Source: a virus (taxonomy: Duplodnaviria > Heunggongvirae > Uroviricota > Caudoviricetes). From it: DNA of 64,000 nt. The position numbers and the translations under genes were made by a program. The notes below the pieces were generated by a model. It searched no databases, was not told the DNA's origin, and saw nothing but the letters and a program-made list of their open reading frames with translations. The stretch lies in the IMG/VR virus record IMGVR_UViG_3300045988_142422; one strand, 5' to 3'. Positions within the stretch are counted from its first letter, which is position 1. Each line of letters opens with the position of its first letter. This document shows, one piece after another, positions 1,882 through 58,240 of this stretch.

Positions 1882-4800
1882 ATGTGGTACAGGGAAGGTA
1901 CTATCACATTTACACAGGGTAGCAATACTCTGGTTGGGGCAGGGACAGCCTGGAACGTAACAGCTAATGGTGTGTTGCCGGGGATGATCGTCATTGGCCC
2001 CGACAATAAGCTGTATGAGATCAAGCGCGTAACCAGTGATACGAACATTGTTCTCTCAGAACCTTATACCGGCGAAACTCAGTCTGAAGTTCCGTGCCGA
2101 ATCATTACGACCTATGAAGGCGACTTAACACAGTTTAGCGCGCGCTTTACAGCACTAATGTCGCGTATGTCGGCTGATTCCAAGTCTATGCGCAGTTGGT
2201 TGACTGCTCTGGATGAGGTGACAATCGAGCGTGAAGACGGTACAGAAGTAACCGTTAAGCCGCTAATGCAGATCGTCAACGAGCACAACGAAAACGTTGA
2301 GTGGTATAAAAATAACACTGACGCGATTGATGCTGCTGGCGACAAAGCTCGTGAGGCGGCGGCCAGTGCTGCCGCAGCAGCAGAAAGCGCCAATACCGCT
2401 GGAGAAAAAGCCTCTCAAGCGTCTCAAAGTGTATCCGCTGCGGCATCCTCACAAAGTGCCGCAAGTGCGAGTGCAACTGCTGCGAAAAAATCTGAAACGA
2501 ATGCCGCAGCGTCACAACAATCAGCAGCCACTTCTGCATCCACCGCGACCACGAAAGCGTCAGAAGCTGCCACCTCAGCCCGGGATGCGGCGGCCTCAAA
2601 AGAGGCAGCGAAATCATCAGAAACGAACGCATCCTTGAGCGCCAGTAGCGCAGCTTCCTCGGCAACGGCGGCAGGAAATTCCGCGAAGGCGGCAAAAACG
2701 TCCGAGACGAACGCCAGGTCTTCTGAGACGGCAGCGGGACAGAGCGCCTCAGCTGCGGCAGGCTCAAAAACAGCGGCTGCGTCGTCTGCCAGTGCCGCGT
2801 CAACAAGTGCCGGGCAGGCCTCAGCCAGTGCCACCGCCGCCGGAAAATCGGCAGAAAGTGCCGCATCGTCTGCTTCAACAGCCACAACGAAGGCTGGCGA
2901 AGCCACTGAACAGGCCAGCGCAGCAGCGAGGTCTGCTTCCGCAGCGAAGACATCCGAAACGAACGCGAAAGCGTCGGAAACCAGCGCAGAATCCTCAAAA
3001 ACGGCTGCCGCATCGTCCGCCAGTTCGGCGGCGTCATCGGCATCATCTGCGTCTGCTTCAAAAGATGAGGCGACCAGACAGGCGTCAGCAGCGAAGGGCA
3101 GTGCCACGACGGCATCCACGAAAGCAACAGAGGCGGCAGGCAGTGCGACGGCAGCATCTCAGAGCAAAACTGCTGCTGAATCCGCTGCGACCCGTGCGGA
3201 AGCTGCTGCTGATCGTGCTGAAGAGATTGCCGGTGCAGTTGCGATGGAAGACGCAAGCCTTACAACTAAAGGTGTTGTGAAACTTAGCAGTGCTGTCGAC
3301 AGCACCAGTGAATCGCTGGCCGCAACGCCAAAAGCAGTTAAAGCAGCCAATGACAATGCGAATAGCAGGGTGCCATCTAACCGAAAAGTTAACGGTAAAG
3401 CACTGACTGCGGATATCACATTAACGCCGAAAGATATTGGTACTTTAAATTCAGTAACGATGTCTTTCTCTGGCGGGGCAGGGTGGTTCAAACTGGCTAC
3501 GGTTACCATGCCACAAGCGAGTTCCATCGTTTACATCGCATTGATTGGTGGCGCTGGTTACAACGTCGGCTCCCCACATCAGGCAGGTATTTCAGAACTG
3601 GTTCTACGAGCAGGCAATGGAAACCCCAAAGGGATTACAGGTGCTTTGTGGAAGCGTACAGCTGTCGGATTAACGAATTTCGCCTGGATCAACACATCCG
3701 GCGATACATATGATATTTACGTTGAGATTGGCAATTATGCGACTCGTGTAAATATCCATTGGGATTGTACTGCAAATGCGACAGTTTCTATTTATACCTC
3801 GCCAACATATTCAGCGAGTAAGCCTTCCAGCGTTACCGATGGTGTTGTTTATACGATGTATAGCTCACATCAGAAACCTACACCATCAGATATTGGAGCA
3901 CTGCCAACAACCGGAGGAACAGTTTCAGGTCCGTTGTCTGTTACAGGTGGATTAACTGGTTCATTGAATGGTAATGCAAGTACAGCCACGAAATTGCAGA
4001 CGGCAAGATCTATCGGTGGAGTTGTTTTCGACGGTTCTGCAAATATTAACCTTCCAGGTGTAAACACTACGGGTAATCAGAACACCACTGGTAATGCTGC
4101 AACTGCTACAAAACTTCAGACGGCAAGAACTATCGGCGGCGTGAGCTTTGATGGTACTGCGAATATTAATTTGCCTGGTGTAAACACGGCAGGTAATCAG
4201 AATACAACGGGCAACGCGGCTACTGCTACGAAGTTGCAAACAGCGAGAAACATCAATGGTGTTAAGTTTGATGGCTCAGGCGATATCAACATTAATACAC
4301 TGGTATCTCGTGGCCGAGTTACGGCGTTAAGTGGCTCTACTCAGGGTACTGCTGGTATTCAAATGTATGAAGCATATAGCAATAATTACCCAACATCATT
4401 CGGCAATGTTCTGCATATGAAAGGGGCGAGTGCTGCTGGTGAGGGCGAGTTGCTTATTGGCTGGAGCGGAACGGATGGTGCTCATGCACCGGTTTATGTT
4501 CGTTCACGCCGTGATACTTCGACAGCGAATTGGTCTGGTTGGGCGCAGGTCTATACCACTGCTCATAAACCCACAGCGAAAGATGTTGGGGCTGCACAGA
4601 CGTTTAGCGCGTCATACAGTACTGGGGCTGGCAACTGGACTACCGCTGAATTTATCGCATGGCTGAAGGAGCGTGGTGCTTTCGCCGTACCGTATTGGAT
4701 GATGAAAGGCTCTTGGTCATATGCCGACAATAAAATTATCACTGATACAGGTGTCGGCAATATTTGTCTTGCTGGTGCGGTTATCGAGGTTTTAGGTCAC

Positions 4801-39543: not shown

Positions 39544-39552
39544 TAACACCAA

Positions 39553-40030
39553 CCACTGCGGTGAGTAGTCTGCTCACCGCATTCGTATCCAGCTCATTAT
39601 CCACTGTAGTCAGTAACAAAACCTTCCTACATATCTGCTAACCACTGTAGCGAGTAGACAGCCTTTCATTCGCATCAAACAACCACTATGGTGAGTATTG
39701 GAGTGAGATGTCCAGCGGGTATCCACTATGGTGAGTAAGCCTTTGCTGTTTTCAGTGGATATCCACTCGCCACAGTGGATACGCTCAAAGATGAGGGCGA
39801 CAACAACCACTATAGACAGTAAATTTTCCAAGATACCCAGTGACCACTAACCTCGCAGCCCTTGTTTCATCAGTGTTAGTGATCACTAACATTTAATTCG
39901 GTATTTGCATTCTACTGCCTACAGTGGTTATCAACAGATAACGATACTCACTATAGTGGATAGCGAATTACAGATATAAGTAAGGCTCACTACAGTGGAT
40001 AGTGAGCCTTACTACTAACTACAGTGGTTG
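39553..40030. repeat. Iteron array downstream of repA (copy-control locus candidate)
   Basis: At least 9 copies of about 16-22 bp units with core CCACTRYRG / CYRYAGTGG in both orientations. Confidence 0.8.
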
Positions 40031-40032
40031 GG

Positions 40033-41088
40033 CTATTTGCGAGTCTTTGCCTTGCGCAACTCTTCGAGAAGCGCCAGTTCTTCTTTACTCAACATGACCA
40101 TTTTGCCTTCTTTTTCGTCAGGCACAACGTCGATAATGTCATCTTGATTCTCATCTGGGAGGCTATATTCCGTCTCATCATTATCGATTTTTGTTGATAT
40201 TTGTGCCTGGCGTAACTTTGGCCGCCTATAGTGGATGACGAAGTAGACCGAGTTTCCGCGCTTAACTTCCGTGTAATCGAGATATCCTATCTCTCGCAGC
40301 TGTTCCATAGCCTTTCTTACCGTCGCATTCTGAGTAATAGTGCGACTTGTCAGATTAAGTCTGGCGCGTAAACGGGCTAGTGATATTGGTGCCGGATCAG
40401 GCGGCAAACTTTCAATAAAAGTATAAAGCGCCTGAGCGGATTCTTTTCTTGAGAGTTCGTTTATAGCCCGGAGTTGCAGAAGAACCTTTTTGTCGAACTG
40501 GTAGAGTTCGAAAATCTTGGGATCTGCTTTCAGTTCGACCGTATCGTGCTTGACACTATATTTTGCCGTTTGCACAAGATGCGTTACGTAAAACTCATCA
40601 GAGCCTTTGCTACGGAACGAGATGGTATTTGTGGCAATACGGCTTAGCGAACTGTCCAGGCGTTTGCGTAACTTCGCTGATGACCTGGCGGTCGGAATGC
40701 CACACAGCCTTACAAACTCAACGAACGGCAACGTGACAGTATCGCCAACGACCTTGTGTTTGGCAAACGCGTGGATTATTCCCACCCACGTTTTAAAGTC
40801 GTTATCCATATCAAGCCGAAGGCCAGAGATCCTTATGTCTTCGTACCCTTCGGCTTTTGCCAGAGACAGCTGTTTGAGTTCAGCAGAGGCATCCATAGAG
40901 ACCATTTGCCCCTTTCTTCCTCTGGATGTCGATTTCAGCGTCGGAACGAAGAGGCCCAGACGCATCAAAGCAACAGGCTGAACAGTGTTATTAGTGTTAG
41001 GAACCAACGTAACAACTTCGCCTGTCTTTTTATCTGTTTCTGAAAATGCTTCAACGATCGCTATGTTTTTATTGCCGTTTTCGCTCAT
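40033..41088 (-). CDS. repA: Iteron-binding replication initiator RepA (Rep_3 / RepFIB-P1-like)
   Basis: 351 aa minus-strand ORF flanked on both sides by iterons; family assignment by context and general resemblance, not searched. Confidence 0.7.
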
Positions 41089-41130
41089 TCCAAATGTCTC
41101 TTGTTATTCGACGGCTTTGGTGGCCTTTGC

Positions 41131-41256
41131 TGATTACAGTGGATAGTAGCACTCATCACAGCGGTTATCCTACCGTCTATAGTGGTTTTTCTCCTCTCTA
41201 TAGTGGTTGCTTTGCTCCCTATAGTGGATTATTCGCTCTCTATAGTGGATATCGAT
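41131..41256. repeat. Iteron array immediately upstream of repA
   Basis: Six tandem units about 21 bp: TACAGTGGATAG, CACAGCGGTTAT, CTATAGTGGTTT, CTATAGTGGTTG, CTATAGTGGATT, CTATAGTGGATA. Confidence 0.8.
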
Positions 41257-41298
41257 CATGTCTGAAGGCAGATGGCACAACGGTTTGAGGTGGGCGGG

Positions 41299-41513
41299 GA
41301 TCTTATTGGGTCTTTATGGGTCTCTTTGGTTCTCTTTGTGATCTGAATTACTGGATCGGGCCTGTGGATAAAAATCAGAGGATTTCAAGAACAGGTAACT
41401 CTACTCTTCTGTGGATATTTAAGGACATAAGAATCATGACTAAGAGTAGAGTTTAAAATATATCTATGTATATCAGTATGTTAATGAAGAATTAAGTCAT
41501 TAAGTTATCCATA
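41299..41513. promoter_or_regulatory. Origin-like region: DnaA-box matches, AT-rich tract, GATC sites
   Basis: TGTGGATAA at 41363-41371 (perfect DnaA box complement), TGTGGATAT at 41410-41418, TTATCCATA at 41505-41513; GATC at 41299, 41340, 41354; AT-rich 41440-41500. Confidence 0.6.
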
Positions 41514-41525
41514 AAAGACAATGTG

Positions 41526-41636
41526 CTCTACTCTCTACAGTGGATATATACAGCTCTCCAGAGTGGTTGTTTTACTCTTCATAGCGGTTATTCAGCTCTC
41601 TACAGAGGTTTCTTTGCTCTCCATAGTGGATGGCAA
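41526..41636. repeat. Second upstream iteron array
   Basis: Five units about 22 bp with cores CTACAGTGGATA, CCAGAGTGGTTG, CATAGCGGTTAT, CTACAGAGGTTT, CCATAGTGGATG. Confidence 0.75.
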
Positions 41637-41672
41637 CACCCTTTCAGACCAGTAACCGCAACGGCTAGAGGC

Positions 41673-41730
41673 GATCGGGGATCTCTTTGGATCTTCTATT
41701 TGATCTTACTTGGGATCTCTTATTTGGATC
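41673..41730. promoter_or_regulatory. Cluster of six GATC sites in 58 bp (Dam/SeqA-type control candidate)
   Basis: GATC at 41673, 41680, 41690, 41702, 41714, 41727 within GGATCT-type short repeats. Confidence 0.55.
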
Positions 41731-41831
41731 TATCCAGTGGATAACTGGGATAAGTAAAACAGGCAAATGCAGATTAAGGTATGCCTAATGAGTTATCGTA
41801 GCATCGGCTAACAATCACAGAAAAATGACAT

Positions 41832-42476
41832 ATGGATCTAAAACGCACGCGCTGGGTTCGTCGTCTTGAAGACTGCTCCTACACTATCGAATCAAATTCC
41901 AACCTGAATAAGCAGAAGTTGCTTTGTGACATCTGCGGTATAGCGGCGAAGTGCCCGATCTACGAAACCAGAATTAAACTTGATAAGGCTGGTGTGAATT
42001 TTCATTTAAACAGTTGCATCAGGTACGTTCCATTACTCGCATTTCGTAAACCGATCATCGGATTGGATGCTCCCTACTTCAACACACTCCGTTCAGGTGT
42101 GACGTGGCGAGATCGTTTATCACCAGACAAGCTGATTTGCCTCGTATCCGCAGACACAGGGAAAATCATCCGTTTTGGGAAAGTAGACAAGGTTTACTCA
42201 GGCCCAGTAGACGAAATGTTGCGGAAACACAGCCGGTTTAATCATCTCTGTATGGGTGGTGAGAAAATCGAGAAAGTAGAAGAAGTGATCCGCAAATCCT
42301 ACGGACACTTTCTGACCAAAGATAGCCTGCTCACCGCAATCTACATCAGACATGTAAAACGTGAGTTCGACCTCGAATACCACAGCGAAGAAGAGCTTAA
42401 CCTTGTTGACCCACGTCCAAAAGCTGGCGTCATAAGCATAAACGCAGCGCGTAAAAAGCCCACTGACGCGCTGTAA
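41832..42476 (+). CDS. Hypothetical protein
   Basis: 214 aa ORF next to origin region; several Cys near N-terminus. Confidence 0.45.
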   Translation: MDLKRTRWVRRLEDCSYTIESNSNLNKQKLLCDICGIAAKCPIYETRIKLDKAGVNFHLNSCIRYVPLLAFRKPIIGLDAPYFNTLRSGVTWRDRLSPDKLICLVSADTGKIIRFGKVDKVYSGPVDEMLRKHSRFNHLCMGGEKIEKVEEVIRKSYGHFLTKDSLLTAIYIRHVKREFDLEYHSEEELNLVDPRPKAGVISINAARKKPTDAL

Positions 42477-42730
42477 CCCTCCAGATCGTATATTGGCGTA
42501 GATAGAATCTACGCCCCCTCAAAATAGCTCTCATAGCGTTCTACAGTGATCCTGTCTTATTTTTAGTCATACAGACAAGCAAAGTTGCGCCACGATAAAT
42601 AGGTATATACTTACTTATAAATTTTGTATATTAAGGCGCTCGTTTCATTCCTAACATACCGTTATGCATAGTTGTTTACCTCCTCATTGCTCTTAGAATT
42701 TGTATCAAAATAACCACAAAGGAAAAATAC

Positions 42731-43816
42731 ATGACTTTGCCATACGGCGTCATTTCTGACTGCCACTACCACAAATGGGATGCGTTCTCCACGACGAACG
42801 CTGAGGGGCTTAACTCCAGACTTGAAATACAGTTGGAAGCAACGAAAGAAGCAGCCATCGCCATGAAGAAGGCCGGTTGTAAGTACATGTTGGTTGCCGG
42901 TGATACATTTCACGTCCGAGGAACTGTGTCCCCTTCTGTTTTGCATTACGTAACTGAAACGTACAAGTGGATTATCAACGAGCTTGATCTGACAGTAGTA
43001 ATGCTGGCCGGTAATCACGATCTTGAAACCAACGATTCAGTATATAGCGCCAACGCAGCAGCATCGCTGAGTTCTATCGGCGTGGTAATCGTATGTGGCA
43101 AACGCCCACACTCAATAAAAATTGGTGATGTGACTGTCCACCTGATTAGCTGGCGTAACAATCATGCGGAGCTTATCAGCGATCTGAAAGCATTACGTAA
43201 GAGCGTAGAAGGTGATAATCATGACGTTGTTATCCATACATCCATTAACAAAGCCATTCCAACAATGCCTGACGTCGGTATCGATGCGCAGGAGTTAAAG
43301 GATATCGGCTTTCGTCTCGTGCTTAGTGGGCATTACCACAACCACAAAGAGGTCATTCCTGGAGTTATCAGTGTCGGCGCACTGACCCATCAAAATTGGG
43401 GAGATGTTGGATCTCTGGCTGGCTACATGATCGTAAACCCGGACGGCAGTTTCAGTCACTACGAAACCAGTGCGCCTAAATTCATTAACCTGGAAGATGA
43501 TGTTGCTGATGACCAAATTCGCGGCAACTACGTGCGTTTCCGCGCCGTAATTGAGAACGATGAAGAAGGCATTAAGTACCAGAACATCCTCAAAACAATG
43601 GGTGCAAAAGGTGTCGTGTGCAACTTCATCCGTAAGTCATCAATGATGGAAGGTACAGCCAGCACAACTGAAACCAGCAAAATCAATAGCCTGGGAGAGT
43701 CGGTATCTGCTTATTGCAAGATTGTCCACGATACTGACGGCGGATTTGATCTGAGCAAATTGGATATTTTGTGTCAGGAAATCCTCACCGAAGCGGAGAG
43801 TTCGGAGGCTGTGTGA
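42731..43816 (+). CDS. SbcD/Mre11-like nuclease (T4 gp47-like)
   Basis: Phosphoesterase motifs DCHYH, GDTFH, GNHD, GHYH. Confidence 0.75.
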   Translation: MTLPYGVISDCHYHKWDAFSTTNAEGLNSRLEIQLEATKEAAIAMKKAGCKYMLVAGDTFHVRGTVSPSVLHYVTETYKWIINELDLTVVMLAGNHDLETNDSVYSANAAASLSSIGVVIVCGKRPHSIKIGDVTVHLISWRNNHAELISDLKALRKSVEGDNHDVVIHTSINKAIPTMPDVGIDAQELKDIGFRLVLSGHYHNHKEVIPGVISVGALTHQNWGDVGSLAGYMIVNPDGSFSHYETSAPKFINLEDDVADDQIRGNYVRFRAVIENDEEGIKYQNILKTMGAKGVVCNFIRKSSMMEGTASTTETSKINSLGESVSAYCKIVHDTDGGFDLSKLDILCQEILTEAESSEAV

Positions 43817-57646: not shown

Positions 57647-58240
57647 ATGATTGCAGCCGAAAAAATCAAACAGCGAAAGCGCGACAACTCTCTTCGTGAC
57701 CTCTGGAGAACACCTGACTGGCTGTTTTCTGCCATTCAACGTTATCTTGGAGTGACATTTGATGTTGACGTTGCCTGCAACAAGGACAATGCAAAGCTGC
57801 CTAATTTCATAGGCGTTGAGCGTGATGCTTTGAAATCTGAATGGGGACAGCCAGGTACAATTGCCTTCCTCAATCCACCCTACTCCAAAATCTCCCCCTG
57901 GATTGATGCGGCTATACGTGAGCAGGCTCGCGGAGTTACAACAGTGATGCTAATTCCTCAATCCCTAGATACAAAGTGGTATGAGCGTGCAACAGAGTGT
58001 GCGAATGAGACGATTATTCTGTCTGGTGGCCGCGTAGCGTTTGTCGAGCCTGACGTAAATCTGGGTCAGGTAGAAGTAAACATCAACCCAGGTGGCAGTA
58101 TGCTCGTTGTTTTTCGAGGATTCTGTCAGGACGCTGGGCACTCTATAAGCAAGATCCCTTTGGACGTCATGAAAAGTCTGGGAGGGTATGATCCTGCGAA
58201 TGTGATCAGGAAAAAAAGACCATCAAAGAAGGCTGCTTAG
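57647..58240 (+). CDS. DNA N6-adenine methyltransferase (phage Dam-type)
   Basis: WRTPDWLF N-terminal motif and catalytic NPPYS. Confidence 0.7.
   Translation: MIAAEKIKQRKRDNSLRDLWRTPDWLFSAIQRYLGVTFDVDVACNKDNAKLPNFIGVERDALKSEWGQPGTIAFLNPPYSKISPWIDAAIREQARGVTTVMLIPQSLDTKWYERATECANETIILSGGRVAFVEPDVNLGQVEVNINPGGSMLVVFRGFCQDAGHSISKIPLDVMKSLGGYDPANVIRKKRPSKKAA

Follow-up and report, generated by a model that had tools for sequence, protein, structure and literature searches.

The six-site GATC cluster of an SSU5/Cyrano-like phage-plasmid as the probable core of a P1-oriR-type replication origin

Results and Discussion

Within the 64,000 nucleotides of DNA analysed here, in the following referred to as the window, six GATC sites were found in a stretch of only 58 bp (41673-41730). 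With a probability of roughly 0.8, this cluster represents the core of an iteron-controlled origin of the P1 oriR type, through which an SSU5/Cyrano-like phage-plasmid persists as a plasmid prophage of low copy number. The assignment is based on the anatomy of the surrounding region, on the homology to P1 oriR, on the selective conservation of the GATC sites together with their spacing, and on the portability of the core between replicons.

The region 40000-43000 showed an identity of 98.5% to Escherichia phage Cyrano and of 82% to Salmonella phage SSU5, and the window is an SSU5/Cyrano-like phage-plasmid of E. coli. Cyrano corresponds to the phage-plasmid pLF82 of E. coli LF82, for which about 5.5 copies per cell were determined (PMC9928086).

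Number and density of GATC sites

All six GATC sites of the cluster that had been described in an earlier note on this DNA were present, starting at 41673, 41680, 41690, 41702, 41714 and 41727 and thus spaced by 7, 10, 12, 12 and 13 bp. The whole window comprises 262 GATC, corresponding to 4.09 per kb, while 3.84 per kb are expected from the base composition and 250 +/- 14 sites were obtained in dinucleotide shuffles. Since the total is close to these expectations, the element is overall neither enriched in GATC nor avoiding it. For a frame of 58 bp, about 0.22 GATC would be expected, and the Poisson probability of at least six sites is 1.5e-7 for one frame, which rises to about 0.01 when corrected for the 64,000 frames. 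Among 300 first-order Markov sequences none exceeded four GATC per 58 bp, and uniform random placement reached six per 58 bp in 14 of 20,000 cases. The cluster is the densest in the window and the sole spot with at least four GATC per 58 bp. Compared to the 4.09 sites per kb counted for the window, the six sites in 58 bp confirm the earlier assertion of a density far above chance, and the cluster is real and statistically sound.

The only other spot of the window with at least three GATC per 58 bp lies at the 3' end of a Dam-like gene (58153-58207, three sites in 55 bp). The remaining GATC near the origin are located at 41299, 41340 and 41354, as had also been noted before, and additionally at 41254, which had been missed.

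Anatomy of the origin region

The initiator gene repA is encoded on the minus strand (40033..41088) and was identified as an open reading frame of 351 aa of the Rep3 family. The domains Rep3_N (E 1.3e-10) and Rep3_C (E 1.3e-4) as well as phrog_775 (E 7e-146) were recognised. RepA is identical to the RepA of Cyrano (100%) and shares 47.5% identity with the RepA of P1 (E 1e-71), so that a Rep3-family initiator homologous to P1 RepA directly adjoins the region of interest, as in P1 oriR. Between repA and the following gene for an ASCH-like protein, the intergenic region spans 743 bp (41089-41831).

Starting from repA, this region begins with the proximal iterons on the plus strand (41133..41258), which comprise six units in a 21-bp register (repeat family D1). 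Four of these carry the core CTCTATAGTGGWT, and the iteron pattern was matched at 41175, 41196, 41217 and 41238. Based on their incC-like position directly upstream of repA, the proximal iterons probably hold the repA promoter and operator; a weak sigma70-like site was found in them on the minus strand (41255->41228). A G+C-rich spacer separates them from the proximal core (41293..41357, plus strand), a second copy of the origin core that is poor in GATC and lies in register with its distal counterpart (repeat families D3, D4 and D5, offset 361-381). It consists of T-rich units of about 10 bp, which read GATC at 41299, GGTC at 41309 and 41319, GTTC at 41329, and GATC at 41340 and 41354. As the first ancestral site at 41293 now reads GGCG, GATC is kept at three of seven positions. 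The proximal core is closed by a perfect DnaA box, TTATCCACA, on the minus strand (41363..41371), and the consensus scan revealed a further box with one mismatch at 41410-41418 on the same strand.

The two halves of the region are connected by an inter-module spacer (41376..41504), which is AT-rich in the window (22-27% GC) and, with 62-65% identity to SSU5 and pMT1, the least conserved part of the region. It contains a perfect 12-bp inverted repeat, I1 (41397-41408 and 41442-41453), IHF-like sites at 41471 and 41490, and a sigma70-like promoter matching 10 of 12 positions that is aimed at repA (41484->41457). The possibility that this spacer is a conserved unwinding element was discarded, since it is only 62-65% identical in SSU5 and pMT1 and not AT-rich there.

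The distal half starts with a DnaA-box-like sequence, TTATCCATA, on the plus strand (41505-41513), which is followed by five iterons with a spacing of about 21 bp (41533-41637, plus strand). This part of the module (41505..41637) is 84% identical to SSU5 and pMT1. From the distal iterons to the first GATC, a G+C-rich spacer of 35 bp follows (41638..41672, plus strand, 52-60% GC), which aligns to the P1 stretch GCCGCGCCACG..CTGG. The distal core itself (41673..41730, plus strand) was recognised by its homology to P1 oriR. Each of its six GATC belongs to a unit of the GGATCT type and its top strand is rich in T, but with a GC content of 37.5% the core is only moderately AT-rich. By analogy to P1, it is presumed to be both the target of Dam and SeqA and the site of strand opening. 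A terminator-like match at 41677-41696 arises from the GGATCT repeats and was rejected as artefactual. On the minus strand, the consensus scan and the P1 alignment revealed two tandem DnaA boxes (41736..41753), which border the distal core on its outer side. The box TTATCCACT (41736-41744) equals the inner box of P1, while TTATCCCAG (41745-41753) is degenerate in the window; relatives, e.g. pKP037-2, have an intact second box.

With an offset of 361-381 bp, the two halves match each other in register (D1, D3, D4 and D5), which indicates a tandem duplication of a module composed of iterons, spacer, GATC units and DnaA box. This changes the picture drawn in the earlier note, in which the cluster was placed beside the origin, with the sites at 41299, 41340 and 41354 on the other side of the DnaA boxes. 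The cluster is instead the origin core itself and not the flank of an origin centred on the DnaA boxes at 41363-41513, and the three sites are what is left of a second core that arose by tandem duplication and lies about 381 bp off in register.

Downstream of repA, the pattern search and the repeat families D1-D4 revealed about 12 further iterons in both orientations, which form an incA-like array (39548..40030). In analogy to its counterpart incA in P1, this array is presumed to be the copy-number control locus. In the whole search, 38 matches to the iteron pattern were obtained compared to 10.6 expected, with a clustering at 39599-40236. The array is split into two oppositely oriented blocks, and the 3' end of repA itself contains one more iteron copy (40224).

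Homology to P1 oriR

For oriR, the GenBank record of P1 (AF234172) lists two tandem DnaA boxes as a DnaA protein_bind feature, followed by five sites of Dam methylation, five iterons of incC, then repA and finally nine iterons of incA; the incC iterons have a 21-bp spacing and contain the promoter PrepA. Each of these elements has its equivalent in the window. Iterons spaced by about 21 bp lie between core and repA in both the proximal and the distal set, short GATC repeats homologous to those of P1 lie between iterons and DnaA boxes, tandem DnaA boxes mark the outer edge of the core, and a second iteron array, here of about 12 copies, follows downstream of repA.

The reverse complement of 41643-41762 could be aligned to the P1 core over 81 columns with 90% identity (z=25 against shuffles). 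The sequence common to both reads ACTTATCC.C..TTATCCACTGGATAGATCC...AGATCC...AGATCCCnGATCG. Counted from the iteron side, the GATC spacings are 7, 10, 12, 12 and 13 in the window compared to 7, 10, 11 and 23 in P1, where one unit that is GATC in the window reads GGTC. The gap from the last iteron to the first GATC is almost identical with 40 bp in the window and 39 bp in P1. The proximal core showed 80.6% identity to the distal core (z=12) and 77% to that of P1 (z=11). Altogether, the earlier suggestion of a methylation-coupled origin resembling oriC and P1 is substantiated on the side of P1 by the homology of the cores and the annotated Dam sites, while an action of Dam and SeqA on the window would follow from the analogy.

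Conservation and portability of the core

Relatives were gathered via the neighbouring ASCH-like protein, which serves as an anchor independent of GATC. This yielded 80 viral loci, to which SSU5, PhiR41_1, pMT1 and pKP037-2 were added; the 85 loci comprise 33 distinct 200-bp upstream sequences, which are mutually related, so that the counts given here are not independent events. Each of the six GATC was kept in 32 or 33 of the 33 distinct sequences, and the GATC columns showed 99.2% identity compared to 77.8% for the columns between the sites. In 20,000 random draws of six four-column blocks, this degree of conservation was never reached. The spacing varied only slightly among the relatives (7, 10, 12, 11-13 and 13-14 bp). 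This selective retention of the GATC columns and their spacing indicates that the tetranucleotides and their phasing are what selection preserves.

While the core is kept, the neighbouring replication genes are exchanged. The core with its DnaA box adjoins other iterons and another Rep (<60% identity) in PhiR41_1, an E. coli O169 plasmid, the Klebsiella plasmid pKP037-2 and the conjugative IncFIB plasmid pGR-1870, in which the iterons beside the core read e.g. ACCGCTGACAGCATA or CCGnTTTATAAACACA. In total, one core is common to three unrelated cassettes of iterons and Rep, conjugative IncFIB plasmids included, and core matches were obtained in 1320 plasmids of PLSDB, of which 63 are from Yersinia and 369 are predicted to be conjugative. 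The retention of the core despite the swapping of initiator and iterons fits a module that is read by the host proteins DnaA, Dam and SeqA.

A breakpoint of this exchange is visible at 41643 (position 4001 of locus L002), where the similarity to PhiR41_1 and CMS-2020a (95-96%) starts exactly between the distal iterons and the core. Rep and iterons are exchanged as a cassette, while the linkage of the core to the DnaA boxes and the ASCH-like/SbcCD block is retained. The region 41089-41831 was also found on plasmids of 208 out of 5,426 complete E. coli genomes, 90 of them with the full two-core region, and never on a chromosome. In two of the relatives, RefSeq coding sequences of the 'RepB family' (L004, 1273-2487, and L006, 1252-2469) reach to about 15-30 bp from the GATC core and cover the expected iterons; by analogy to PhiR41_1, their starts are probably annotated too far upstream.

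Proposed mechanism

Based on the homology to P1, RepA monomers would bind the five adjacent 21-bp iterons, while host DnaA would bind the tandem boxes on the opposite side. Opening of the duplex would then take place between them in the T-rich region of GATC repeats, which covers about 60 bp. Efficient firing is expected to need full methylation of the six GATC by the host Dam, and full methylation would promote this opening. After replication, the hemimethylated sites, spaced by about one helical turn, could be bound cooperatively by the host SeqA, and an immediate re-initiation would be blocked. For SeqA, a preference for hemimethylated GATC lying on one face of the DNA at restricted spacings was described (PMC2691817). 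The copy number would be set mainly by RepA and by handcuffing of the iterons with the incA-like array. SeqA may impose only a short refractory period and not the timing. Dam dependence, the binding of SeqA with subsequent sequestration, and the opening site are thereby transferred from P1 and oriC and are to be read as predictions for the window; in favour of an action of Dam and SeqA, the selective conservation of the GATC columns (99.2% compared to 77.8%) can be named. A literature search returned no experiment on this element or on any SSU5-type replicon.

The tandem duplication and its possible meaning

Two cores were determined in 29 of 29 loci with a RepA at least 80% identical to that of the window, and one core in 53 of 53 loci with another Rep. 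Judged from these sequences, the core duplication is fixed in the lineage of SSU5, pHCM2, pMT1 and Cyrano. Among 18 distinct two-core sequences, 17 shared a near-identical GATC-poor pattern in the proximal core, SSU5 and Y. pestis pMT1 being among them. In the exception, L043 (IMGVR_UViG_2922289487_000003, ~1960-2440), the proximal core has four GATC and is one unit shorter, and the distal core has lost its first GATC (GTGC). This intermediate pattern indicates that the GATC content of both cores can shift within the lineage.

Compared to SSU5 and pMT1, the proximal module showed 88-90% identity and the distal module 80-84%, while the spacer between them showed 62-65%. This difference points to a constraint on both modules, i.e. 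purifying selection. Since both are conserved, the attempt to choose the firing module by conservation alone failed.

It is conceivable, though in our view not probable, that only the repA-proximal module (41133-41371) fires. The distal module would then be a negative-control element, with an additional set of iterons for handcuffing and a SeqA-binding sink that keeps new copies paired or silent. The proximal module lies in the exact position of P1 oriR beside repA, it ends in the sole perfect DnaA box and it is the better conserved of the two, and additional iteron sets are negative regulators in P1 incA as well as in ori2-inc of Vibrio (PMC6090056). However, it is the GATC-complete core that is present directly beside iterons and rep in all 53 single-module relatives. 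The distal core is also closer to that of P1 than the proximal core (90% compared to 77% identity), and the distal module keeps the full geometry of an origin with the 40-bp spacer and the tandem DnaA boxes.

A different and rather unlikely reading is that one initiator serves two tandem modules of differing methylation sensitivity, which would give two replication regimes from one replicon. In this case, the distal core with all six GATC would be under the control of Dam and SeqA. The proximal core, in which the 10-bp T-rich repeat is kept but four of seven GATC are changed to GGTC, GTTC or GGCG, would be largely methylation-blind. This could, for example, separate a sequestered low-copy maintenance from an unsequestered firing after infection or induction, when DNA that has just entered or replicates rapidly would be under-methylated. 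The duplicated core with its GATC-depleted copy is the only part of the finding that could teach something new, and as a fixed duplication of one GATC-complete and one GATC-depleted core it is a modestly interesting variant.

The phage-encoded methyltransferase

The earlier note had further pointed to a Dam-type gene elsewhere in the element, from which it derived the idea that the origin might time itself by its own methylation. The gene (57647..58240, plus strand) is a genuine member of the small 'Dam' family of phage N6-adenine methyltransferases and a homologue of CYRAN_79. This is based on matches to Pfam PF05869 'Dam' (E 2.5e-38, 131.8 bits at a cutoff of 28.1), to the NCBIfam model TIGR01712 for phage N-6-adenine-methyltransferases (113.9 bits at a cutoff of 97.05) and to phrog_111, and the translation carries the catalytic NPPY motif (LNPPYS).

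That this enzyme, and not the host Dam, sets the methylation and thereby the firing of the origin is nevertheless very unlikely. The presence of the gene in the element speaks for it, as does its occurrence in 742 PLSDB plasmids, of which 730 are predicted to be non-mobilizable and are of phage-plasmid size. However, the distribution of gene and core differs markedly. None of the plasmids with the gene is from Yersinia (E<=1e-20) and only 8 are conjugative, whereas the core occurs in 63 Yersinia records, among them Y. pestis pMT1 with the identical two-core origin, and in 369 conjugative plasmids. With 1320 plasmids carrying the core and 742 carrying the gene, this indicates that the origin type works without the Dam-like gene, and hundreds of plasmids, pMT1 included, have the core and lack the gene.

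Furthermore, all hosts are Enterobacterales, and Enterobacterales encode Dam and SeqA. The gene itself is located in a block of DNA metabolism, since CYRAN_79 lies among genes such as those for a PolIII epsilon-like exonuclease and an RNase H-like protein. A list of Cyrano genes with high, above-background expression in lysogens of LF82 (PMC9928086) does not contain CYRAN_79. The enzyme is only 39% identical to those of Stx phages and a relative in the PDB was not found, which leaves its specificity for GATC putative; a literature search for a paper on the sequence specificity of the PF05869 family gave no result. Altogether, the gene is not demonstrably linked to the origin, and self-timing, for which the co-presence in one element was the argument, is not supported.

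Promoter switch or packaging site

GATC clusters are also known to regulate promoters (pap, agn43, mom) and the pac site of P1, in which two groups of GATC-containing hexamers flank the terminase cut site. In all 80 viral loci, the ASCH-like open reading frame starts about 100 bp after the cluster, yet it is highly improbable that the cluster acts as a Dam-sensitive switch of this gene or as a P1-pac-like, methylation-controlled packaging site: between cluster and ASCH-like ATG no sigma70-like promoter was found on the plus strand and the sequence is only 64% conserved there, the downstream gene is not constant, as pGR-1870 has a convergent Y-family polymerase gene after the core and no ASCH homologue, and the core is homologous to P1 oriR and not to pac, lies inside a plasmid replicon and is present in conjugative plasmids without phage genes. 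A promoter of the pap, agn43 or mom type and a pac-type site were both rejected on these grounds.

The neighbouring open reading frame (41832-42476, plus strand) encodes 214 aa and is annotated as 'ASCH RNA-binding domain' in Cyrano. It matches phrog_2105, to which no function is assigned there, and gave no match in Pfam or NCBIfam. In each of the 80 viral loci, irrespective of the Rep type, it directly adjoins the origin core, and the protein could be a replication accessory.

Implications for SSU5-like elements

SSU5-like phage-plasmids are common and include pHCM2 of S. Typhi, pMT1 of Y. pestis, pLF82/Cyrano and the Klebsiella pKpn group. In the 12 E. coli records listed, no annotated feature lies under 41089-41831, and many plasmid records are linearised there. 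The recognition of a P1-type core presumably linked to Dam and SeqA offers a ready annotation for this region; a sequence-level description of the SSU5, pMT1 or pHCM2 origin was not found in a literature search. It also leads to the prediction that these elements would be hard to establish in dam hosts. A core that is read by the host and stays in place explains the swappable cassettes of Rep and iterons, and hence the incompatibility types. As an origin core of the known P1 and RepFIB kind, in which initiation is methylation-gated, the finding is largely ordinary, and the knowledge of how such origins work is unchanged by it.

Comparison with known replication origins

Compared to oriC, the resemblance is modest. 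The 13-mer of oriC has the consensus GATCTnTTnnTTT (PMC4081077). Three units of the window match it with one or two mismatches at the 10 fixed positions, the closest being the unit at 41714, GATCTCTTATTTG, with nine of ten. The units have a length of 10-13 bp, and much of the match lies in GATCT itself; the resemblance is regarded as a functional analogy and not as a demonstrated homology. Like in the left half of oriC, tandem T-rich units initiated by GATCT run into a DnaA box of the TGTGGATAA type (R1 in oriC) in the same orientation. In contrast to oriC, the units of 10-13 bp are variably spaced and less AT-rich, initiation would proceed via a plasmid Rep and iterons, and there is no array of DnaA boxes past the tandem pair. 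Like the sites presumed here, oriC is reportedly a target of SeqA (Brendler et al. 1995).

A further iteron-type origin with six regularly spaced GATC is ori2 of V. cholerae, which is Dam-dependent, sequestered by SeqA and has a single DnaA box (PMC6090056, PMC2865523). It is likewise split into a replicative and a regulatory part, ori2-inc (PMC6090056). Contrary to the window, the GATC of ori2 lie one each inside the six 12-mers bound by the initiator, and their methylation is needed for the binding of RctB, whereas those of the window lie outside the iterons in the presumed opening region. The initiators also differ, as the Rep3-family protein of the window is unrelated to RctB.

A closer connection was found to the RepFIB/IncFIB replicons, represented by REPI of pColV-K30, IncFIB(pQil) of pGR-1870, pMT1 and pHCM2 of S. 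Typhi. They share with the window the GATC core and its DnaA box, adjacent to iterons and an initiator of the Rep3 family, and adenine methylation is reported to have a role in the replication of REPI (Gammie & Crosa 1991). The lineages with a single core differ from the window in their iterons and Rep (<60% identity), and the conjugative IncFIB members carry neither phage genes nor a Dam-like gene. pMT1 shows the two-module arrangement of the window, with a layout that agrees base for base.

With P1 oriR, the window shares the order and orientation of the parts, the core sequence, the inner DnaA box TTATCCACT, the length of the spacer and the incA-like array. The differences concern single elements. 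All six units are GATC in the window, while P1 has five and one unit with GGTC, and the iteron reads CTCTATAGTGGWT compared to GATGTGTGCTGGAGGGAAA in P1. The module of iterons, core and DnaA box is tandemly duplicated in the window, with the GATC-depleted copy adjoining repA. Finally, the element is a siphovirus-type, SSU5-like phage-plasmid, while P1 is a myovirus, and the methyltransferase of the element belongs to the small PF05869 family, whereas the Dmt of P1 is a member of another family.
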